Notes: generated from the letters alone by a model not told the origin. A stretch of DNA of 20,000 nucleotides from Tricharina praecox (GCF_024521635.1 NW_026250426.1:609330-629329), one strand, 5' to 3'; shown: positions 1 to 20,000, numbered from the stretch's first letter. Translations and numbers: made by a program.

Positions 1-3000
1 CGGTATTGGTTGATGAGAACATATGAGTTGACCACAACGATGGCAGCGCAGGCAACAAAGACACCCATCTGTTCTCTACCACCCAGGTCTTGGCCGGTGG
101 GACCAGCAAATGAACCCGTGTGGAAGACCAGGTATGCCATAAAGAAGCAAATGACCGATTGGTAGATGCCGTCGACCATGTAGATCCAGAACTTGAGTTG
201 CGTCCATTCGAGGCGAAGAATACCGCGGCGATACAGTTGCGGTACGGCTAGTGAGACCTTGTCATCCACATCCTGATCGAGGATACCCATAAGGATAACT
301 GGGACCGAGGTGAACGCAAGATTGTACAGCAGAATGTAAGTGTACTCGAAGAGGTAGGATCCATCGAAACTGTTGAAGAGCTGATACCAGAAAAGTGCAA
401 ACGTCCAAACGATGTTCTGTGTAACACTGTCAGCGGAAGGTCACGGAACGCACTGGGAGGACAGCAATCGTACCTTGTAGAAGAAGTTGGCAGTCATCTC
501 GGCAAGTCGGCGGTAAGACCATCGTCCGTGAACCAGTACAAGTCTGCTGAGGAAGCGGAACTGTCCGATCGCATAATCCGAGCACATGACAGCCTGTCTG
601 CCCTCTTCACCGGCAATACCAACGCCGACATCCGCCTCTTGGATCATAGCAACGTCATTCGCACCATCGCCAATCGACAAGGTCATAACATCCAATCCCT
701 TCTTGACCATCTGACAGACAGCCGCCTTCTGACTGGGACTGACACGACAACACAGCACCGCCTTGCATTGTTTGCAAAGCAAGAGGAATTTCATCTTCAG
801 TTCTTCCTCAAGCACAAGCTTAAGTGCGTCACCGTCGATAACCAGAGCATGAGTTGGCGGGGGTGGGTTGTGGTCTTTCTTGGCAGCCTCCAGCTCTTCC
901 GGCGAACCCGTCATATCGAAATAGTCATGCAGATATTTATCCAGTAGTGCTGCAGCGGTTTCGGGTTTGTCTTCGTCGACTTTGAACATGATCAAATCCA
1001 TTCCGTTGTCCAACAGGTTGCAGGAGAATCCAATGTTGATGGCAGTTTCGACCTTGTCACCGGTAAGAACCCACAGCTTGATACCAGCTTCGGCCAAAAG
1101 GGCAATCGTGTCGGGAACACCGTCTTGCAGACGATCCTCAATAGCAGTTCCACCGAGCAGAGTAAGTTCCCTTTCAATGGAATCCGAGACCTCCTCCAGC
1201 TTCTCTTCTCTGTTGTGAATAGCAGAGGCGGCGATGTCGTGTTCCCTGCTCCAAGTTTTGTACTCCTCCTCGGTCAATTCCCTCTGGGCAATGCACAGTG
1301 TGCGCAATCCTTCGCGGGCAAAGACTTCGAGATGGTCGGCGGTTTGACGTCGTAGTTCCTGTTGCTGACCTTTCCGTAGTCTGGAGTAGATGATGCTGTC
1401 GGCACCCTTACAGAAGATGAAGATTTTCCCAGTTTCAGGCATACGTACGATGGCGCTCATCCTTTTCCGTGCGGAGTTGAATTCCAAAGTGCTGAGAACC
1501 TCAAAGTACTTCTCGACACCCTGGACGTTGACGGTGACTCCATGGGTTGACTTGTCTACCAGACTGTAACCGCAGTCTCGGGCTGTAGCCACTAGTGCAG
1601 CCTCATCAGGTGATTGAGCTTTGAAATCGACGGTTGGCGGATCCTCGGAGATACGGTCGGGCAATACGGTGTGACACAGAGCCAGGACAAGCATGAAATG
1701 CGCGTTTGCCTTGGCCTGATCCTCGCCCGAGCTTCCCCGCAAATCGGCAACATAATCCGAAGAAACAAAGGTGATCTTGTCCTCGTTCAGGTAAGGGTTG
1801 TGACTGATCTGCTTCAGATTCTTAATCATCTCCAGTCGGTCCGCCGAGATTTGGGCGCGCATCCTCGCACCCTCCTCCTCCACGTTGATACCCTGGCGTT
1901 TCTGCATACCTGCTTGCGCTTCCGTGTATGCTTCTCCGTAGGGAACCCCGTTGACGGTACATTTCTTGAACTCCATGACGTTCTGTGTCAAAGTACCGGT
2001 CTTATCGGAAAAGATGTACTCGATTTGGCCAAGGTCGTCGGAAATGTTCCAGGATTTCGGTGTGCACGGATAGTCGAGTTTATCGTAATACATGTTCACA
2101 TCGCTGTATATGAAGAATGCCTGCGCCAGCTTGATGATCTCAATACTGATGTACAACGAGATGGGTACCAAGTTTTGGAAGAGAATGACCGCAGTCCAGA
2201 AGGTAACGATACCGTCAACCGGAGGTGAACCGCCGATGGAGCCGAATTCGAAGTAATTGAGCGATTCGTTTCCCTTCGCCCACGTGACTCCTTGTACGAT
2301 ACCGGACAGAACACACATAATGAGCAGGATTCCGAAATTCAAGATGACCTATGTAACCCTTTAGCGCGGGTCCCAATGCAAGGGGAAACATTCCAGCGCA
2401 ACTTACGTTCCAATTGAGTTCTCTGGAAATACGACTACGCTTGGAAGGTGTAATTCCCGCGTTCATCATAATCTTAGTTTCGTCACCTGTGAATGCCACG
2501 ATTCCAATCGCCCAGTCGGTATTCCGGAGTGTGCAACCACGGAGAAGCAGGTTGTTGATGGAAACTGCCTCCGCCATTTCCACCTCGGGTTTTGAGGGAT
2601 CGAGGGGATCCCTCTGGTTCCATTTGACCACTCCACTGTACGAGTAGAGATTCGCATGTGGGTCCTCGCTCTCGAGCACAAAGGCGGCAGCCTCACAGTC
2701 GCGGGCATGACGAACCTTCCTACCGGCACGAAGAGCGTGCCGAACCTTCAAGTTTGTCTCTCCATCGAGGTTCTTAGTCTCCACATAGCAAGCACCGTCG
2801 CTGTCGGAAGTGGAGAGAATGATGAAGTCGGCGGGAATCTCCTCATCGTTGTAGATACGAACAAAATCTCCCACGCGGACGTCTTTCCAGTATCCAACCT
2901 TAAACCGCGCAGTTTCCGCGGTCTCGCGATGAGGATCCACCAGGTTACCAAAGTCCCGTCCGCCGGGCTTCGTGTGTCGATCGGGGGCCGCATTCGGTGA

Positions 3001-3968: not shown

Positions 3969-6534
3969 GATGAGGGGGGGGGAAGGTTTTTTATTATTTA
4001 AACTCCAGTCTATCTATGGCAAATGTTGAGGTAAATTAAGTGGTGCGAAAGTCTCGTCGTCGTCGTGGAACGGAAGGGTGCGGTAGCGTGCGACCCGACG
4101 TGGTGGTGACCAAAAACCCGAAGAACGAATGAATGAACGAAGGGATGAACAAGATGGACAGCGGCAGCGGCGCGGTGGAGGTGGTGGATGGAGGGTGTGT
4201 GTGGAGGTGGTGGTGGTGGAGGTGGTAGGATGTAGAGGTGGGTTGGTGGTTTGGAACTGGAGGCAGGGCCGGAAAGGACTCGACCCGTGTTCGTTTGTTT
4301 TGTGGTTGCTTTCCTTTCGCACTCCACTCCTCTCCTCTCCTGCTTTACTCTCGTCTCCTCTCCTCTGGTGCGTCCGGCGCTGGCTGCAAGGGGGTGTAAC
4401 AATACCTACAGGTTCTCACAGCTGTGTCGGCAATTGGATGGAGCTGCGGCGGTAGGCGAGAGAAGAAGAGGGCGTCGTGATATTATTGCGTGTTTGTGAG
4501 GTATTGGTATGTTGAAGTTTCCTCGATTCCAGGCGAAAGGAAGCGAGCGTGAGTCGAAAGGGACCGTGACGGAGCAAGGTGTAAGTGCTCTTTCTTAGCA
4601 CGGGGGTGTTGAATGGGGGGGAGGACGATATTGGGTTGGTTTGGGAGGGTGAGGGGGGTAGTTAGGTCGATGCTTTTTTCGAGCGAGAGCAGCAGGAGGG
4701 CGCAATGACGATCAAGGACGGGGGCAACTGAGCAGAAAAGGGTGGCAGTGAGGCGATCGGGAAGGGGAGGGGGAGGTGGATTCGACTAGAGGGAGCTGGG
4801 GTGGGGGGGTAGGGGAGGCAGTGAGAGGGGGGCTTTGGGTAGGGGGCAATGCTAGAGATGAGGACACAGAAACGAGCGACGAATTAATATCGCGAACTCG
4901 AAGGGCATGCACTGTCGCTGAGCACGATGGCGTACGAGTGGAAGAAAGTACGGGCTTGGTATGGGTAAGGTATGGAAGAAGGTATCAAGCCGTGCTTTGT
5001 ACCCAGGCCCCAAGTCACGAACAAAGTGCTTTCGCTCTAGGCACGGAGGCGGAACGGAAGGCAGAGAAAGAAAAGACGGAAGCCAGAGAGGAAAGACGGA
5101 AGGAGAGCGCCCTTCTTTCGATCGTGTCGCGGCTTTCACGGGCGAGGCGATGCAGAAGGAGGCGTCTTCGACGTTCTCCAGATTCGAAATGGGGGCTGCT
5201 AGTAGGGGTTGTGGAGACGGGTAGAAGCACTTTACGAGCACCTCCGTGCAGGCTGCAGTTCCTGACGAGACGGACTACTCGGATTCCGGCGCAGTTAACT
5301 CGATTTATTCTAACAGTCGGCACGCGGCGGCCTTCGAGAAGAGCAGAATCAGGCTACGGTGGGTAAGCAGGCAGGGCACTCGCGAGTCCAACAGAGATGA
5401 GGCCAGCTGAGCGCCACAGCCATGTCAGCCACCCATCAACCCCCATCAGCTACACAAGAGCTTGAAATCTATCTCCCGTTTTGTCCTCTTCGATTCGGTT
5501 GTCTCGTCAAGTTTTTCGTTGCGACGAAAACTATTGGCAGCGGTGTAGGTTTGTGACCGGTGATTTAGCGTTAACCACATCTCTCGGGATGATTTAACAG
5601 CCCGACTGCGGCACGAGCCACAGAACCACGCCAGTTGTGGCGTACAACAATTCCCACACTCCATCCCACCGGAAGAAAACCCCAACTCAAAGCCAAATCA
5701 ACAAACAAACGCTATGTAGAGTGGTATATATACCAGCCAAGACGCCTTGACATGAGTTGCCGCAGGCTATATATCGACACGGCCCCGCGCCGGGAACTGG
5801 GCAGTGGGATTTGCCGCCATCGATGACACTGGTAAGGAGATCCGTCGCACGACTGCGCAGATATACAGAGCGGCTGGAACTCCGTCGCCCCGTCGACCCA
5901 TCAGCCCGTGGACCCGCGGAGCTATCAAACCCCCTTCACCTAAGCACAATTGCGTGCTCATTCTTCATCATACACAGCGGTTGTGTATAGGTAGGTAAAG
6001 AGTCGCAATCGGTCGGTACATATCGAAGCCGATGGCAAGCTCAGGCAAACAAAACTCCGCCGAATCGCACGCCGGCCAAGATCACAACATCGATGAAGAG
6101 GAACCGATGGCGAATCAAGTCCGGTATGCCTGCGACCGATCAGTACGATCGCCGGAGAGAAGTTGCACTCCCTTACCCAACCAACAGAGAAATACACGAC
6201 GGAGCGACTCACCGCATTGTTCCGGATATGTATGCTATGTCATGCTAATGGGGAAAACGACACTCGGGGTAAGGACGTACTGCTGAGGGCTGAGAAGCTG
6301 AGGTTTTTGTGGCGTGTGTCGTGTGTCGTGTGTCGTATTGAAAATGGAACCCAATGCACGGGGTAGGTATTTGACGCCCGCCGGGCACCAGAGGTCCAGC
6401 TGGACGGAACAAGTGAACGGACGGGCAGATCCGCACACCAAAACACTGGGTTGTGAGTCGGTCCAGAAACCCACCTTCCCAGTCACGAAGATCCTCCAAG
6501 TGCTGTTGTCACCGAGAGTTGCGATCTTACTCCA

Positions 6535-7855: not shown

Positions 7856-9425
7856 GGAACCAACACAGAAAGGCAAAACGACAACGGAAATAACAGAAAA
7901 TAAAGGTATTCGGCCGCCCAGCCGTCGCTGTCTGTTGTCGATACTTTAATGATGTGTATGTGTGGTGCATCGTGCGGCTGATGCGATGCGCATTGCGATG
8001 CACTCCGCACCTATTTCTGTCTCAGCCTGCCAGCCAGCGCCCAGCGGCCTGCGGCCCAGCCACGACGACGAGTCGACGACACTGGACAGGCTACATACTC
8101 GTACAGCGGGCCCATCTTTGGCCCGGCTCACCGTTCACGAGCTGTTTTCGGCGCGTCAAAAGTCGACAACTCCTCCTACATGTGTATAGTAGAGTACCAG
8201 TACACACACATACCGGTACATACGCCGCACTAATTGCCGGGATGGGCGGCAGCTTACAAGTTACCAGTTGACCACTGACGGGCACCCAGAGCCAGAGCCA
8301 GAGGTCCATGGTTCTTCGATCTGTAGCGTTCTCCCTTGCCTTTGCCTTTGCCTTGCCATGCGTTGACGGAAGGGAAGGGAAGAGGGGGGCAGCGAACCAG
8401 CGAATGGGAGCTAGGTGCTCTAGAGTACCAACACCCCATGTCGAAGCAACCACCCAGCTTAGAGCTACGCTAGACTGCCCCCCCCGCACACATAGGGAGA
8501 ACTTCGAAGGGCAGCGAGACGAGACCTGCAGCAGCGCAGCTCCGTCCACTCGACTCGACTCATAGTTGACTGTTGACCCGGGCGGTCTCGCTGCCGTCGC
8601 CGCAACCGTCGCCGACCGGCCGCTGTCCGCATTCCTTTGCACTCTGCAATGGAGAAGCTCGTATCCCTACCCCCCGTTCGGCCCAGAATCCACCCGTCCC
8701 GTTCACCGTATGATAAACTCATGCTTCCGCGACGCAGGAAACCCTCTTTCTTTCTTTGCCACATAATTCTTACCTGGATGGATACTAGTACGGTAGGTAG
8801 ACCACAACAATCGTCGCAATCCACCTCAAAGTCACGTCCGTGCATTCACAATCCCCCCCCGTCCCCCCCTCGCGATACCTCCGGTCGGTGATTACGTTGT
8901 GTGCTGGTGCTGCCTGCCCTAGGCCACGCAGATTTAGCCGACTGACCGACTGCCCGGCCGGCACCGGCGCTGATCGGATCCCGCTCATCCGTATATATCT
9001 ACTCGAGTAGAGGACCTACCTACGGTGCTTCGTGGTGAGGGTGAGGGAGGAGGGAGGAGCACGTACCCTCTCGAGTGACTCGGGAGGGAGAGGGGGAGAG
9101 GGGGAGACGGAAGCTATAGTACTAGTAGAGTGAGAAGTAGGCACATAATAGAGTAGAGCAGAGCAAGAGGCGTGGAGGAGAGCCGCCTGGCCTGGCCTGC
9201 CTAATAACTATGGCACGCCCGGGAGTACGTACACTTGATTTCGCTTGATGTTTCTCCCCTGCCGCTGAAAGCCTGAAACAACGCGGACCGGAACGCGAAT
9301 CCCCCCTCCCCCCTTGGATTGGGGATACCCATATACCGTATGTCGGGGTTTGGGGGTTTGGGAAGGGGGGCTTCGCAGAGATGGGCGAATCATTCCGCCG
9401 TGAAGGGTGGGTAGATTAGCGAGTG
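7856..9425. repeat. Copy A of a diverged direct duplication of non-coding DNA
   Basis: Collinear blocks shared with 10892-12197, e.g. CCTCAAAGTCACGTCCGTGCA (8824-8844), GGGAGTACGTACACTT (9221-9236), AGATTAGCGAGTG (9413-9425), GGGCCCATYTTTGGCC (8108-8123). Boundaries are approximate. Confidence 0.85.
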
Positions 9426-13591: not shown

Positions 13592-13791
13592 CAGTGTTCT
13601 ACATAGTCCGGCCCAGTCCGGTCCAGTCCGTTCGGACCCGTGGACGGGACTGGACTACATATATGATATATCCAGTCCGTCCGGACTCTGGAGGTGTGTG
13701 TTGGACGGGGCGGACTACTTTTATCCCGTCCTCCAAAAGGCACAGACGGAATTGAGTCTTGGTAGTCCGGACCGGACTATGGAGAACACTG
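13592..13791. mobile_element. 200-bp non-autonomous DNA transposon (MITE), hAT-like termini
   Basis: 20-bp terminal inverted repeats with one mismatch: CAGTGTTCTACATAGTCCGG (13592-13611) versus the reverse complement of 13772-13791, CAGTGTTCTCCATAGTCCGG. There are eight internal AGTCCG/CGGACT repeats and no coding capacity. GAGCGGA flanks both sides, imperfectly placed on the left. Confidence 0.75.
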
Positions 13792-14175
13792 GAGCGGAAG
13801 TAGGATCGGGAGGGGGATGACGGAGGAACTTAGTATGGTACCTGGTGCTGTAATGGATCAATGCTGCTGATGGGTAGGAGAAGTTACTACACCTTACGAC
13901 TAAGGGCTGCCAATGCGTAATAGATACCGAGTAGGGATGGTTCTTGCGTAGCAAGACGATAATATAATAATGCAACCCCAATAATCAGTCCGATGAATCA
14001 CAGAATAACGAGAAGCCACATTTTTGTAAGAAGGCTTTTCCTGTTATCTAGCAATCAAACAACCTGAACGCCATCCTCCACAAAACACCTAGAAAGAAGA
14101 CATGATATTCGAAGCCTGACTAGAAAATCACAGCAAAAGTTTTATTTTTTCGGAAAGAATCCACCATGCCCATAT

Positions 14176-14919
14176 TTACTGGATGCGGTAGGCATTAACC
14201 TCGTAGTCGAACTTCTTGCCGAAGATGAACCACTCGTAGTAGAAGAAACTGTGCATCAAGTCAGCCAACAACTCTTCTCGGCGATGAATGGTTAATTAGG
14301 GAGGGACATACCGCTTCCTACCACCGGCCTTTCCAGCCTTTCCACACTTGGTACCAATTTCCTTGACGGCGTTCCCGACTTTCAGGCACGGGGTGCAGAC
14401 CTTCTTGTGGTCCCAATGGCACAGGTCGGAAGCGGCCGAGTTCCTCCACATCATGGTGCTACAGGTCTTACCAAGCGCCTTGTGGCAGCACCAAGCCCCA
14501 CCCTTTCCTATGTTGATGAGGTCTTGGGCGAGTGCGAGGACGTCGCTCTGCTCGGGAGAGCCGCCGCTCGTCTGGCACTTGAGTTCCGGATTGGGCGCCC
14601 AGTTCATGAACCTATTCTCGCCTGGGTGCTCAGTAGGTGCCGCGGGAACTCCGGGGAGCGTGGGCAGCGGCTGCCCGGCTTGGTAAAGCTCGAGCAGGTG
14701 CGGCAGGTCCAGCGCGGGGTGCGACGTGTTGAAGCCCTCCGAAAGCTTGAGGTATTGACTGCCGTCGGGTGAGGTAAGGACTTCTCCGGCAATTTCGTCA
14801 ACTTCATCAACTCCGCCAATTCCGCCAACATCGGATGGAGACGTTGGGGAAGGAAGAGCCGATCCGCCTGCGAGGAAGACCGTAACTAGGGATAAGACGG
14901 AAATAAGGGAAAGACGCAT
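14176..14919 (-). CDS. Small secreted cysteine-rich protein (226 aa, 8 Cys), effector/killer-toxin-like. Exons 14919-14312, 14248-14176
   Basis: ATG at 14919 starts a signal peptide (MRLSLISVLSLVTVFLAGGSA-LP). An acidic/Pro-rich pro-region follows, then CQTSGGSP..D..WCC..C..C..C..C..C..GG. Intron 14311-14249 (GTATGT..GCTGAC..CAG, 63 nt) gives the in-frame tail RFFYYEWFIFGKKFDYEVNAYRIQ*. Confidence 0.85.
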
Positions 14920-16410
14920 TGTGGTTGTCTCGATTGATGGTCTTAATAAAAGGATAAGTGTGAAGAGGAGGTCGGGGGTCAGGGGTCGGACACCAGCAAC
15001 GAAAAGCTGGCGGTGGTTGTGGTCGTATGAGAAGGAGGTTGAAGTGGGTGAGAACAGGAGGAGAGGGTGTGAGGAAGGAGAGAGGGCTTTATCGGGGTTG
15101 TCGACGAAAATCTGTCGGCGAAATCTGAATTTCACCTCTTAAATATTAAATGTTCCCCCTTCCACCAAGATGACCGCTAATTGAATGTGTGCCTAGCCTA
15201 TCCATCCGCACAAAACCCTCTTGCCGGTATCAATTCGGTCTACGAGAAATAAGCGGAATCGAGAAATCTGGGCTGTTGTGGGCTCCGCTGCGGGCCAGAG
15301 CCTGAAATTATTTGTTTCCTGACATCACGGAGAAGGTGGGATCAATCATTCCACATTCCTCATGCCCGGAAACTTGGTGTTGATCGTATGCAAACACGTT
15401 GGATCAGAATACAGCTCTACCTATTCTTACACCCCTCGGGCTGCATTCCTCTTCTTGGTCACAAACATTCCTGATGCACCAAATTATGATAAGTGTGTCT
15501 CGACTCGAGTGTCTGAAGACATCACCGCCGCATGATTTTCTCCACGTGGGTGTAGACAGAATGCTACAACCATCGGTCATTACATTTCTGCTCAGGGCTC
15601 GAGGGTCGAAATTTATATTCCGTTCGGGTTGCCTGTAGACAAATCAGTATACCAGTGCCAACAGCAAGGCTTCTTCACCATGGATCAGAGGAGGTTTGGA
15701 GACCCCCCTTTCTCCAGTAAACCCCCCTACATACCATTGCCAGATCGAGGCTCATAGGCAGTCACTCTTAACCGCTCCGGCTGGGTTTGGCTGGACGAGT
15801 GATGTATCGTACACTCGACAGAATGCAACGATGCTTAAATACAAAAAAATGTACACTCAACTTCTTTGTGTCCGACATCCTTTGTGCTTCTTTTGTGTTT
15901 TCTTTGTCCTTTCCATGGTGCATTTCACTATCTTGGGTGCTTAGGCGGAGGGTGGGAGGCAAGAGATGGAACCATCACGGAATGAATCAAAAAAAAAGAC
16001 GTACTCGTAAGGGTAACAGGTGCCTCACCTTGCGCTTATAATTCGTAATGGTGGTGAGGCACGGCTTATAGGCTGTTCCTGGTGCACCCAGCTTGTCGGT
16101 AAGTTGTGCTCTAGTTAACGTCAAGAGACTGCTTTAGATGCTGCGAGATGTGTATTTCCAGTACCTTCAGCAGGTGGAATGGTAGAGTCACTGTCAGGAC
16201 CAAGAAATGCATGCGCTTCAATTTTCGGCCTCGTAGCGAACTGCACCAACCCTCCGATACAAAAGCGGCTTGACTACAGGTACAGGAAACTCATTAAGAT
16301 TCCCTTGTTCAAACCAGACAAGATCGGCCATACAGCGATAGGCCTGCCCGAGTGACAATGCCGTGGATCGAGGACAACATCACGTGACCCATCTCCCGCT
16401 AACTACCGTG

Positions 16411-16501: not shown

Positions 16502-18637
16502 ATGCCACCACCGCAATCGAAGAACAACCGGAAGATGACCGATTTCTTTCGCCCCGTCGGCAACGACAGCCCCGCCACAGCGACCAAAATCGTGACCCCA
16601 TCACCATCAACCGAGCCTGTCTCCTCTCCACTGTCGTCCTTAGGGTCGCCGACACCGACACCGACGCCGATGCCGACCCCAGGCCCGAAGCCGAAGGTGC
16701 AGCCGCTACTGAACAAACAGGGAAAACCACGTGTTATTCCGAGCTCAGATGGCGAGGAAAGCTCTGACGACTCTGATCTCGAGGACCCGTTTGGACTCTT
16801 CTCGCGCATCCCCGCGCCGAAACCGCCTGTGAAGAAGAGCGTCCTGGACGATGATGATCCCCTTCCGATTAGAGCGGCGATGCACATAGCAAACTACAAG
16901 TCTACCATGCCGAAGCTACTTAGGCAACGAGAGAAGGAGAAGGCGCTCGATGAAGAGCTGAGACTAGCGTATAACTTGATCGAGGAGAGCGAGAGGAAGG
17001 AGAAGGAACCGCAGATTGATCCGAAGGCGGGGATCACGGAGGAGACGGCGCAGAAGGTCATGGGCACCGATGGTAGTGGCGCAAGGCTGATGGAAGCTCT
17101 GGATCGGGACGATTCCTGGGGGGTTAATTGTGCTTTCTTCGAGTTCTTCGATCATAAGATGATGCCAAACAGGAATCGGAAGCCGTTTCCTGTGGCCGCT
17201 GTGAAGAAGAGCCCGGCTTGCACTTTGCTCGAGAGTATGAACCTACTTGATGACCAGAGAGAGTGGGGTCACTGACACGATCAGATCCAGCAGCCCGTGA
17301 ACAGATGTTTCTCAATGGAGCTTTCGTCGATATCTGCGGGCAACCTGATCTTGCCCTGCCCGACGAAGTTCTACTGTGGATAATGGATGAAGGTACCAGA
17401 GACGATACCAAGTTTGATTCCTGTTTGTTGACCTTTTTGTAGTTTGTCTGGATCAACGAGAAGATATGGTACTGGCGTATTACAAAACACTCCTTGTACG
17501 TATTTGCTTTCCCGTCATACTCAAACAATGATCATTAACGACTGACATGAGTAATAGGGACACCAGGATCGCCTTGTGCCTCTAATGTCGGTCGAAAAAA
17601 TGGTCTCTCTGTTCGAGCTCCTCGGTGCATCGGCCACCGCATTGGATCTTGAACGGCAGCTCCAATTTGGCCAGTCGAACGAAATGGGTCCCGACTTTGG
17701 CGCAGGTATTTGTATTCCCCGGAGATGTCGGTGCGCAAACACTAACGTCTGCAGGTGTTCAACACTGGCGCTCTTGGAACATCATTCACATGGTTAAGAT
17801 TCTCGAGACGGTGGGAGAAATCTATGCGTAAATAGCCACTCACCCCACCCCGTCACTTGGTTTGCTGACTGACATCGTTCGAAATCAGCGTGAATGGAGA
17901 TGCTCAACGAACACAATCCATCTGTAGCATTCTCATCCGCATGTCGTTGGATGACCAGCTATCCCGCCAAAGCAGTTTCCTGGTAACGATTGAGGCGGCG
18001 CTGTACCGAGTGTTACAAGCGATACCGGATGACGTGTGGGATGATCGAGTGTGTATCCCGCCTACTAGAAAACTGTTTATTTGGGTTGACTGACACCTTG
18101 AAGATCAAAGTAATCGGCTACAATATTATGAGCACCATTCTCAAGCCGCAGTTCCGTGCCAGGGTCCTGAATATCCTTCCGCTGTACTCCCAGACATTGC
18201 ATCTATTCCGCCGCCGACTAGCATGCGCATTCCTGTATGAGGACGCCTCCTATCTGATACGAGAATACTTGACCCTTGTGGACCTCGACAAGATGGCGAC
18301 ACTTCTCGGCGAGAGCCAATTTAAGATCACGCGGAAAACCGAATACGTTGAGTTGAATAGTTTGATCCGCATTCTCGAAATCGCGGTGGACAGCGGAGCG
18401 ACCTCTGGTACTCCAATTGAACAGGATAAAGGCGTCGATCGTCTGGTGGAGTTGCTCAGGGCCATGTTCACGAGGATCATAGACACGAATGCAAGGGATC
18501 TGGCGAGGACGGTGGCGAAGGATGCGATTGAACGTTTCCAGTTTCGGCTGAACTTCGCGGTCAGGTCGAAGCGTCGCCAGGCGCTGGGATTGAGCGATGG
18601 CAATCAGCGCACGCTTGGGAACTGGGTTACAAAATGA
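16502..18637 (+). CDS. Fungal protein (~602 aa) of uncertain function, tentatively an Nse6/SLF2-like (CANIN-domain) Smc5/6 cofactor. Exons 16502-17234, 17285-17392, 17443-17495, 17558-17705, 17755-17827, 17889-18048, 18104-18637
   Basis: Six 49-62-nt GT-AG introns with branch-like motifs (ACTGAC, TTGAC, ACTAAC, GCTGAC) keep a single 1809-nt frame. The protein has a disordered Pro/Ser/acidic N-terminus, a charged coiled-coil (YKSTMPKLLRQREKEKALDEE) and a helical C-terminal region (LPDEVLLWIMDEVC...FRRRLACAF). The gene model is well supported; the family call is from recalled architecture only (about 0.4). Confidence 0.8.
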
Positions 18638-18927: not shown

Positions 18928-19801
18928 CTAATCGTAGAACTTCCTGTTGGGGTTCTCTCCAAACACACTGCCGCGGACAACGGGCAAACAGTCGGCTTGG
19001 ATGATCTTCAGACGCTCCTCCAAGGTGTTGTTGATGGTAATCTTTCCGCCCGTTCCGACGATGAAGATGCCTCCGTGCCTGTGACGTGACCGGTTAGAAT
19101 GCCGGAATTGCTGCTACCCCAATCTGCGTGACTTACGAGTCTTCGGGCATGAAGTTGTCCTCATCGACCGTGATGCTCACATCCGCACCCGACGCCTCCT
19201 TGTACTCCTGCGTAGCCTGCTGGATAGCCTTCTTAAGCAGCTCGGTATCCTTCTCCCTCGGCCTGACCTGAATCTTGTCCTCACCGAGGGCATAGAGGCC
19301 CTCCAGGATCAAATTCTTCAGAATTGTCGTGTAATTCTCCTCATCCTTGCTGACTTCTGCGAGCTTCACCCTGGCCTTCTCGAAGATGTCATCGAGCAGC
19401 TGCTGTCTCGCGGCGAGGATCTTCAGTCTGGTCTTGTTGGTGACGGTAGAACGCGCGATCTGCTGCGATAGCTCGGCCTGCTTGAATTTGCGCTCGTACT
19501 GGGCGTCGATCGAGGCCGTCTCTTGGCGTACGAGCTTCGACTTCTCGATCGCCGACTCTTCGTCCGCTTTAATCTCGATCTCGCGCGCTTTTTCGACCGC
19601 TTCTTGGTTGATGAAGGCGACCATCTTCTTCAGCTCCCCCTCCACCTGTAATACATGCCCATCGTTAGCTGCTAGGTGTGGTGAGTGGGGCTGGACGGGT
19701 GTGGGGATGTCGGACGGACCTAGAGACAGCTCTTGTTAGCCGACACACGTAGGAGCGGGGGAAGTGGGCGGTACCTGTGCATCGCTCAGTGCGCGTGCCA
19801 T
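18928..19801 (-). CDS. VMA4: V-type proton ATPase V1 subunit E (228 aa). Exons 19801-19775, 19645-19137, 19078-18928
   Basis: Spliced product MARALSDAQ|VEGELKKMVAFINQEAVEKAREIEIKADEE..IEKSKLVRQE...S|HGGIFIVGTGGKITINNTLEERL...FGENPNRKFYD* matches the well-known subunit E pattern. Introns are 19774-19646 and 19136-19079 (GTAAGT..TCTAAC..CAG). Confidence 0.96.
19646..19774 (-). other. Complex intron of VMA4: two abutting U2-type introns (19774-19720 and 19719-19646) separated by a zero-length exon
   Basis: Minus strand reads CAG|GTACCG...GCTAAC-AAGAGCTGTCTCTAG|GTCCGT...GCTAAC-GATGGGCATGTATTACAG|GTG. The two perfect GCTAAC branch points are at 19740-19735 and 19669-19664. Confidence 0.65.
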
Positions 19802-20000
19802 CTTCCGTTTGGGTTGGTTTCGGAGTGTAGGAGTTGACGGTGATTTCGGGGTATTGTTGAGGCAGAGGTAGAGTTGGCGGTGGTGATGGTGAATGGAGAA
19901 GTTCCGCTCGATGTCGTGGGTGGTGGTGTTGGTGGTGTTGCAATCAAGACCTCCGGCCGCTAACTAGATGCTCACCACCCTCACCCCGGCGTGAACAACG

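Follow-up and report, generated by a model that had tools for sequence, protein, structure and literature searches.

Two abutting intron-like units in the first intron of Tricharina praecox VMA4 point to probable recursive splicing at a zero-nucleotide exon

The first intron of VMA4 is composed of two complete intron-like units

A three-exon gene for V-ATPase subunit E (VMA4) is carried on the minus strand of a 20,000-nucleotide (nt) stretch of the Tricharina praecox genome (GCF_024521635.1 NW_026250426.1:609330-629329; this whole stretch is here called the window), and its first intron, which is removed completely from the mRNA, has the anatomy of two introns placed back to back. We consider it likely, judging from the sequence and its conservation, that this intervening sequence is a pair of U2-type introns that abut at a zero-nucleotide exon, and that removal in two steps is a substantial route. 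The inner signals are conserved in related fungi and exceed what chance would produce, and from these observations we infer that the inner sites are used. A preliminary description of the window had divided the 129-nt intron into a 55-nt and a 74-nt unit, each with its own donor and GCTAAC branch site, and with AG/GT at their boundary (the slash marks a splice boundary); read on the minus strand, all these elements were found exactly as claimed. The features of the gene and of its composite intron are the following:

19775..19801, minus strand: VMA4 exon 1, ATG at 19801 plus 8 codons (MARALSDAQ), with CAG at the 3′ end
19646..19774, minus strand: VMA4 intron 1 (composite), 129 nt; RNA contigs join 19775 to 19645
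19720..19774, minus strand: unit 1, 55 nt, complete intron-like (GTACCG, GCTAAC, then 15 nt to the terminal TAG)
19769..19774, minus strand: donor of unit 1, GTACCG, which is also the outer 5′ splice site
19735..19740, minus strand: inner branch site GCTAAC, branch A at 19736, 16 nt before the G of the inner acceptor
19720..19722, minus strand: inner acceptor TAG, the final three bases of unit 1
19714..19719, minus strand: inner donor GTCCGT, adjoining the inner TAG, so that the exon between them is of zero nucleotides
19646..19719, minus strand: unit 2, 74 nt, complete intron-like (GTCCGT, GCTAAC, then 18 nt to the terminal CAG)
19664..19669, minus strand: terminal branch site GCTAAC, branch A at 19665, 19 nt before the acceptor G
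19646..19648, minus strand: outer acceptor CAG, placed by the sequence and by the RNA joint
19137..19645, minus strand: VMA4 exon 2, starting VEGELKKMVAFINQEA (VEGELKKM...), V-ATPase subunit E domain
19079..19136, minus strand: VMA4 intron 2, 58 nt, ordinary (GTAAGT, CTAAC, CAG), joint present in both RNA runs
18928..19078, minus strand: VMA4 exon 3, ending with the stop codon TAG at 18930-18928

The product of exon 2 matched the Pfam family PF01991 (V-ATPase E) with an E value of 1.4e-46, and the three exons total 687 nt, i.e., 228 amino acids plus the stop codon, which is the same length as the proteins P0002, P0003 and P0010. P0002 and P0003 are derived from transcripts of close relatives (228 amino acids, ~90% identity); they start with MARALSDAQVEGELKKM, exactly the predicted junction, and their N-terminus is identical to the predicted product of exon 1. 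The junction SDAQ/VEGEL, expected upon removal of both units, is the one formed in the RNA contigs that join 19775 to 19645. Translation also bore out that removal of unit 1 alone would leave an in-frame TAG 15 codons further on, and a premature stop was likewise found upon removal of unit 2 alone.

The boundary between the units reads TAG/GT at 19720/19719, the inner AG abutting the GT. The inner acceptor has a branch site of its own; its A, 38 nt away from the outer donor and 16 nt away from the inner acceptor G, gives a geometry like that of confirmed introns of 49-58 nt. For 12 of the window's 13 other introns with RNA support, the best branch candidate was 9-34 nt upstream of the acceptor. 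A donor like the GTACCG of unit 1, GTACCA, is used in the RNA-supported intron 17393-17442. Exon 1 joined to the inner donor would read CAG/GTCCGT, in which the GT and the G and T at positions +5 and +6 are present, with C at +3, and GTCCGT also serves as the donor of a single intron in a relative (locus L067).

RNA contigs lack the whole composite intron

Two public runs from two studies (X1 and X2), which are labelled 'RNA?' and behave as spliced transcript contigs, were compared with the window. The joint of 19775 to 19645, in which all 129 nt are skipped, was present in two contigs of X1 and in one contig of X2, so that in both runs the AG/GT at 19720/19719 lies inside a stretch that is wholly missing from the mature mRNA. 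No half-spliced form was observed among the listed contigs of X1 and X2, which as assembled contigs drop rare variants, and no contig matching the window was found in the soil metatranscriptomes X3 and X4. The runs supported 13 further introns in the window, of 57, 58, 77, 83, 52, 55, 50, 50, 62, 49, 61, 55 and 58 nt. The preliminary description had compared VMA4 intron 1 with 11 others of 49-77 nt; both figures had to be extended, to 13 introns of 49-83 nt, and VMA4 intron 1 still was the longest of the 14. The units of 55 and 74 nt both fall inside the range of the other 13.

The X1 contigs that cross the 129-nt joint stop 29-30 nt past it (window 19615-19805), with depths of 7633 and 34.6, compared with 1080 for the main transcript contig; their ends may mark a branch of the assembly graph, produced by another isoform or by an ACAGGT repeat. 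As to the other introns, two that are supported by RNA (8323-8377 and 18049-18103, plus strand) end in AAG and not in YAG (Y, pyrimidine), and the intron at 2349-2406 (minus strand) is devoid of a YTRAY branch motif (R, purine), the nearest candidate being GCTAAAG. The splice signals of this fungus are fairly loose.

The two-unit layout is present in three lineages of Pezizales

Metagenome contigs were scanned with 14 aligned Pezizales-like subunit E sequences, a scan that yielded 80 loci. Exon 2 was located in the window and in every locus but L079, where its motif was missed (79 of 80). Exon 1, defined by the pattern M...[LMP][ST][DN]x[QEK] followed by GT or GC, was located in 71 genomic rows, which leaves outside L079, the spliced transcripts L005, L009, L015, L018, L042 and L060, and three loci with no exon 1 upstream (L033, L052 and L058). 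All 71 genomic rows had an intron at the identical position, and in 37 of them it measured at least 80 nt, i.e., enough room for two units.

Conservation of the inner YAG/GT in relatives had been raised in the preliminary description as a point to be checked, and it proved to be present in three Pezizales lineages. The full inner architecture was detected in 9 of the 71 rows, and the two-unit layout accounted for 9 of the 13 Pezizales-like rows versus none of the 58 others. The lineages and their inner sites are the following:

Window's own clade (window; L001-L003, 89% protein identity): units of 55+74 nt in the window and 59-61+83 nt in L001-L003; GCTAAC (window) or TCTAAC (L001-L003), TAG/GTCCGT
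Wilcoxina-like (L004, L007; L006): units of 70+60 nt and 62+60 nt, respectively; TCTAAT, TAG/GTTAGA
Kalaharituber-like (L020; L057): units of 117+63 nt and 107+63 nt, respectively; GCTAAC, TAG/GTGTGC

All nine rows share the inner TAG, a branch A located 15-18 nt upstream of it and a G at +5 of the inner donor. The inner donor GTCCGT of the window is identical in L001-L003, and in the other lineages it is GTTAGA or GTGTGC. The lengths of the units vary freely, from 55 to 117 nt for unit 1 and from 60 to 83 nt for unit 2.

The nearest named proteins all belong to Pezizales (Wilcoxina, 73%; Ascodesmis, 75%; Geopyxis, 70%; Rhizina, 68%; Tuber/Choiromyces, 68-69%; Kalaharituber, 66%). In a quick maximum-likelihood tree (97 rows and 166 columns, with support from the Shimodaira-Hasegawa-like approximate likelihood ratio test, SH-aLRT) the window grouped with L001-L003 and with P0002/P0003 (SH-aLRT 95), L004/L006/L007 with Wilcoxina, family Pyronemataceae (98), and L020/L057 with Kalaharituber, family Pezizaceae (90). 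The Tuberaceae-like loci L038/L050/L055/L056, which have a single intron of 142-146 nt, grouped with Choiromyces and Tuber (99). Locus L017, whose N-terminus is MSLTDDQ as in Orbilia, has a single intron of 153 nt, and a 69-row clade of all other ascomycete classes (SH-aLRT 95) has only single introns, of 52-110 nt. As far as these sequences indicate, the two-unit layout is old, being found in Pyronemataceae-like and Pezizaceae-like lineages and not outside Pezizales, and it looks to have been lost or collapsed in the Tuberaceae-like lineage.

Other features were observed in the introns of the relatives. In two Tuberaceae-like loci (L038:2359-2500 and L050:2355-2500) the motif CA/GTCCGG ... 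CCGACC is found ~45 nt into the single 142-146-nt intron; it resembles the TAG/GTCCGTCCGAC of the window, with one G fewer at the junction and devoid of an upstream branch site. It may be the relic of a collapsed zero-nucleotide exon (AGGT to AGT), a likeness that was noticed post hoc and is not significant alone. The non-Pezizales locus L066 has a TAG/GT devoid of a branch site, and in four other non-Pezizales loci (L011, L012, L014 and L024) the intron at the position of VMA4 intron 1 is of the GC-AG type, with donors GCAAGT or GCAAGC. A 31-nt block in unit 1, which is not a splice signal, is 97% identical between L020:2350-2380 and L057:2364-2394 amid diverged surroundings.

The inner signals exceed chance expectation and are conserved within lineages

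The chance expectation for an inner site was estimated under strict criteria (YAG/GT preceded at 10-25 nt by the A of a CTRAY branch site, with neither unit shorter than 40 nt) and under loose criteria (any AG/GT with a YTRAY branch site 6-40 nt upstream). Among dinucleotide-preserving shuffles of the intron interior (n = 20,000) the strict criteria were passed by 0.66% and the loose ones by 1.9%, and among random 130-nt windows (n = 200,000, taken from the window and the 80 loci) by 0.8% and 3.3%, respectively; when a G at +5 of the inner donor was also required, 0.2% of the random windows passed. These rates on their own are weak evidence, the intron being a single one picked from a very large scan. 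In the two lineages that were examined later, the strict chance rates were 0.014 and 0.0185 (product 2.6e-4) and the loose ones 0.07 and 0.10 (product 7e-3), and random genomic windows gave 0.008-0.015. The independent recurrence in relatives is decisive, unlike the chance rate of one intron. In unit-by-unit comparisons between lineages, 11 of the 12 alignment scores were no better than those of shuffled sequences, the exception being unit 2 of L004 against unit 2 of L020 (p 0.007). Apart from the inner signals, introns of different lineages are unalignable, and a random-sequence null is appropriate because they are saturated.

Within lineages, two moderately diverged species pairs were compared, and the set of inner signals was taken as 14 bases (branch pentamer, acceptor triplet and donor hexamer). 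Between the window and L001 all 14 bases were identical, compared with 62 of 115 positions in the rest of the intron (Fisher p 0.0004), and between L020 and L057 all 14 were identical, compared with 96 of 162 (Fisher p 0.001). When the two pairs were pooled, the inner signals were identical at 28/28 positions and the rest at 158/277 (p 4e-7), so that 43% of the remaining columns differ; in these comparisons the signals were located on one member of each pair, the first, and may themselves have anchored the alignments. The undisputed outer signals were identical at 25/28 positions over the same two species pairs. In these alignments the conservation of the inner signals equals or exceeds that of the outer ones, whose use is established, and purifying selection has probably kept the inner signals.

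A model for the removal of the composite intron

Intron definition is the established model for fungal splicing. The spliceosome of this fungus would normally handle introns of ~50-80 nt, and each donor would pair with the nearest branch site, the outer donor often pairing with the branch at 19736. We infer the order of the two steps, as well as the origin of the layout, from the arrangement of the signals. In one order, exon 1 would be ligated to the inner TAG acceptor, so that a CAG/GTCCGT donor would be recreated, and this donor would then be spliced to exon 2 through the second branch site; the exon 1-unit 2 product would be rescued only if GTCCGT works as a donor with that branch site. 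In the reverse order, unit 2 would be removed first. Either order would lead to the same mRNA, because no signal is interrupted by another unit.

The signals would be mutually dependent once both units exist. If the inner GT captures branch site 2 first, the outer donor would need branch site 1, and use of branch site 1 would make the inner GT essential. We propose that, because of this mutual dependence, purifying selection would act on every inner signal, and that the likely escape route from the two-unit state would be the inactivation of branch site 1 followed by the decay of AG/GT.

Alternative explanations

The inner sites might also be present in an intron that is spliced at once. In this alternative, which we hold to be unlikely, VMA4 intron 1 would be an ordinary, longish intron removed in one reaction (donor 19774, branch 19665 and acceptor 19646), and the inner sites would be relic, cryptic or back-up sites, kept since mutating any single one of them would cause mis-splicing. 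Several observations favor it or weigh against the removal of two abutting introns. The 19775/19645 junction is the only one in the RNA contigs, which cannot separate one step from two, and a one-step excision of the 129 nt from the outer donor through the terminal branch site is possible in principle. Tuberaceae-like relatives appear to remove introns of 142-146 nt devoid of inner sites, and an Orbilia-like relative has one of 153 nt, all at the same position, so that long one-step introns seem to be tolerated in VMA4. The C at +3 of the inner donor is unusual, being present in none of the 13 RNA-supported donors of the window. The lineage names depend on which named proteins are nearest and on a quick tree of 166 columns with some open forks. 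Finally, the three lineages share an inherited layout and are not three origins, so that the argument is one of persistence against a saturated background. On the other side, a perfect GCTAAC that follows the outer donor at 38 nt and precedes a YAG by 16 nt has the geometry of a normal fungal intron, and its use would be expected. A single mutation of branch site 1 would abolish what, in a one-step intron, is a mere nuisance, yet this site is kept in three lineages, and the inner signals are identical at 28/28 positions of the species pairs versus 25/28 for the real outer signals. The proposal of two back-to-back introns that are excised in two steps, as made in the preliminary description, receives strong, if indirect, support from the inner signals, which are kept in three lineages and invariant in two species pairs; no inner junction, lariat or other splicing intermediate was detected among the assembled contigs.

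Two further explanations were weighed against two abutting introns. The layout could be a regulated switch, in which the retention of one unit would lead to a premature stop and decay of the mRNA, or to an alternative protein, and would tune the level of V-ATPase subunit E. Either half-spliced form has a premature stop in the window, L001-L003, L020 and L057, and autoregulation by alternative splicing coupled to nonsense-mediated mRNA decay (NMD) through introns is described for prp10 of Schizosaccharomyces pombe in the available text of 10.1101/226894. However, the NMD switch that the preliminary description had put forward is not conserved: unit 2 of the Wilcoxina-like loci L004/L006/L007 (60 nt) is in frame and stop-free, so that its retention would merely insert 20 residues. 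In addition, no half-spliced contig was found among those listed in the two runs, no database protein with unit-2 read-through was found among the matches listed (weak evidence), and the lengths of the units are free to vary (55-117 and 60-83 nt). We therefore regard such a switch as improbable. It is more improbable still that the inner motifs of this C-rich intron coincide by chance and stood out because very many introns were scanned. Of the shuffles or random windows, about 0.7-0.8% pass the strict criteria and 2-3% the loose ones, and many such cases would be expected from a scan of hundreds of thousands of windows; but the same architecture was present in two lineages examined afterwards (joint chance ~2.6e-4 strict and 7e-3 loose), and the inner signals are invariant in two species pairs in which 43% of the other columns differ.

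Unit 2 of L004 (L004:2441-2500; also in L006 and L007) measures exactly 60 nt, and the 20-residue insert produced by its retention would follow residue 9 of subunit E. The translation of L004 unit 2 plus exon 2 (P0122, residues 1-60) was compared with a protein database, and no read-through protein was found among the best 120 of 1254 matches. The near-identical matches P0011, P0012 and P0018 cover the exon-2 part only (67%), and all three start at exon 2; among the matches listed, those with 87-100% coverage were only 63-72% identical.

Origin of the layout and candidates that were discarded

Both borders of the composite intron read CAG/GT, the first codon of exon 2 being one for valine (GTN) in every row. 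The layout could have arisen from a second intron gained at either border, or from new sites in an expanded intron, and the data cannot choose between these possibilities; the latter route is the one proposed for the stwintrons of Lipomyces in the accessible part of PMC7138796. A further proposal, which is possible but on balance doubtful, is that the zero-nucleotide exon is an ancient, selected feature of Pezizales, derived from an intron gain at a proto-splice-site CAG/GT junction, and that the over-length intron is obligatorily processed as two by intron definition.

Other origins were considered, and most of them were discarded. The preliminary description had suggested the remnant of a lost microexon, and no extra residues were found between the ...SD.Q and V..EL motifs in any of 18 proteins, 71 genomic rows and 6 spliced transcripts. 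A recent tandem duplication was rejected after the comparison of unit 1 with unit 2 in six rows (p 0.085, 0.97, 0.73, 0.39, 0.37 and 0.54, with 2000 shuffles each); an ancient duplication of the units is possible. For introner-like or multi-copy intron elements, a blastn-short search with each unit, which covered the window and the 80 loci and is a weak test, gave only orthologous introns and chance matches of 12-19 nt. A structured RNA or snoRNA was also rejected, the intron fold being no better than that of shuffles (z -0.79), and Rfam gave no match for window 19000-20000 at E values up to 1.

Comparison with known systems

Zero-nucleotide exons are classic sites of recursive splicing in the very long introns of animals, and the process is usually explained as a means of coping with such introns. 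Animal ratchet points reportedly include Drosophila Ubx and about 200 others, as well as the recursive splicing (RS) sites of vertebrates. As in these cases, the first ligation at the AG/GT of VMA4 intron 1 would recreate a 5′ splice site, and the AG/GT is conserved. In contrast, the animal cases divide introns of tens of kilobases, often through exon definition of a cryptic RS-exon, whereas the VMA4 composite of 129 nt must work by intron definition, with either order possible.

The preliminary description had placed ratchet points mainly in animals and stwintrons in fungi, a background that was incomplete, zero-length-exon splicing being documented in S. pombe and Cryptococcus neoformans in the portions available of two reports. 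For S. pombe, two instances are said there to be shown experimentally, including the 336-nt intron of SPNCRNA.445, and the intron and the splice sites around zero-length exons are reported to be conserved in other Schizosaccharomyces species (10.1101/226894, available text). For C. neoformans, the available text of 10.1101/224170 describes the 375-nt intron of BOT1, which is split into 210 + 165 nt by zero-length-exon recursive splicing. As far as the same texts go, VMA4 intron 1 is like these cases in that a 3′ splice site abuts a 5′ splice site and the whole intron is missing from the mRNA. It differs from them in that they were proven by spliceosome profiling (junctions, branches and RT-PCR) and it is known from sequence and fully spliced contigs, and in that their introns, of 336-375 nt, are long for their genomes, whereas the VMA4 composite measures 129 nt and has units of ordinary size (55 + 74 nt). 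Unlike the yeast cases, it belongs to a filamentous ascomycete, in which it interrupts a housekeeping protein gene at the ninth codon, and its layout persists across families of one order.

Complex introns are also known in the same subphylum. According to the available parts of PMC6616335, PMC5639578 and PMC7138796, the stwintrons of Pezizomycotina are complex intervening sequences that occupy one position and are removed by consecutive standard U2 reactions, and their proposed origin is the appearance, within or at an intron already present, of additional splice sites or of a further intron. VMA4 intron 1 is similarly a complex intron at one position in a member of Pezizomycotina. It is not a stwintron sensu stricto, in which the internal intron interrupts a signal of the external one and the order is inside-out, for the six VMA4 signals are intact and contiguous and the units abut. 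Neither is it a stwintron sensu lato, of the Lipomyces type with nested units as presented in the available part of PMC7138796, for unit 1 ends where unit 2 begins. In the portion of PMC6616335 that is available, 'abutting U2 introns excised by recursive splicing' form a separate class, for which animal work alone is cited. For filamentous ascomycetes, the literature searched, with limited coverage of subscription journals, gave no report of introns that abut or that flank a zero-length exon. VMA4 intron 1 is probably a new, compact and deeply conserved example of a rare, already documented splicing mode.

The few known fungal cases came, as far as the available texts of 10.1101/226894 and 10.1101/224170 tell, from specialised spliceosome profiling, in introns that are long for their genomes. 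The VMA4 composite, retained by several Pezizales families in a housekeeping gene that is essential, suggests that abutting introns can be a stable, selectively locked structure under intron definition, and genome annotations, which record one intron, would hide such introns. It offers a simple test system, in which mutations in a single gene have clear predicted effects and the two lariats would be tiny, and a comparative series composed of the two-unit form, a possibly collapsed Tuberaceae-like form and the short single form of other classes, which could be used to follow the rise and decay of complex introns beside the work on stwintrons in the same subphylum. If the inner sites were unused, the case would still show how strongly cryptic splice signals can be conserved. 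Were the doubtful proposal of an ancient, selected zero-nucleotide exon true, VMA4 would provide filamentous fungi with their first conserved and genetically tractable example of short introns spliced recursively, and would also document naturally how an intron was gained at the border of another and how the pair later collapsed in Tuberaceae.

Other observations in the window

Away from VMA4, the contigs of both runs continue into sequence unlike the window at 13615-13748 and 16019-16083, and window 14008-16008 has no contig cover. Such loose contig ends could be due to structural differences between strains, to unannotated splicing to exons outside the window, or to assembly chimeras. The GC skew reaches +0.42 at window 4001-5000, which is the 3′ part of a well-expressed minus-strand transcript, and its absolute value elsewhere is at most 0.16.

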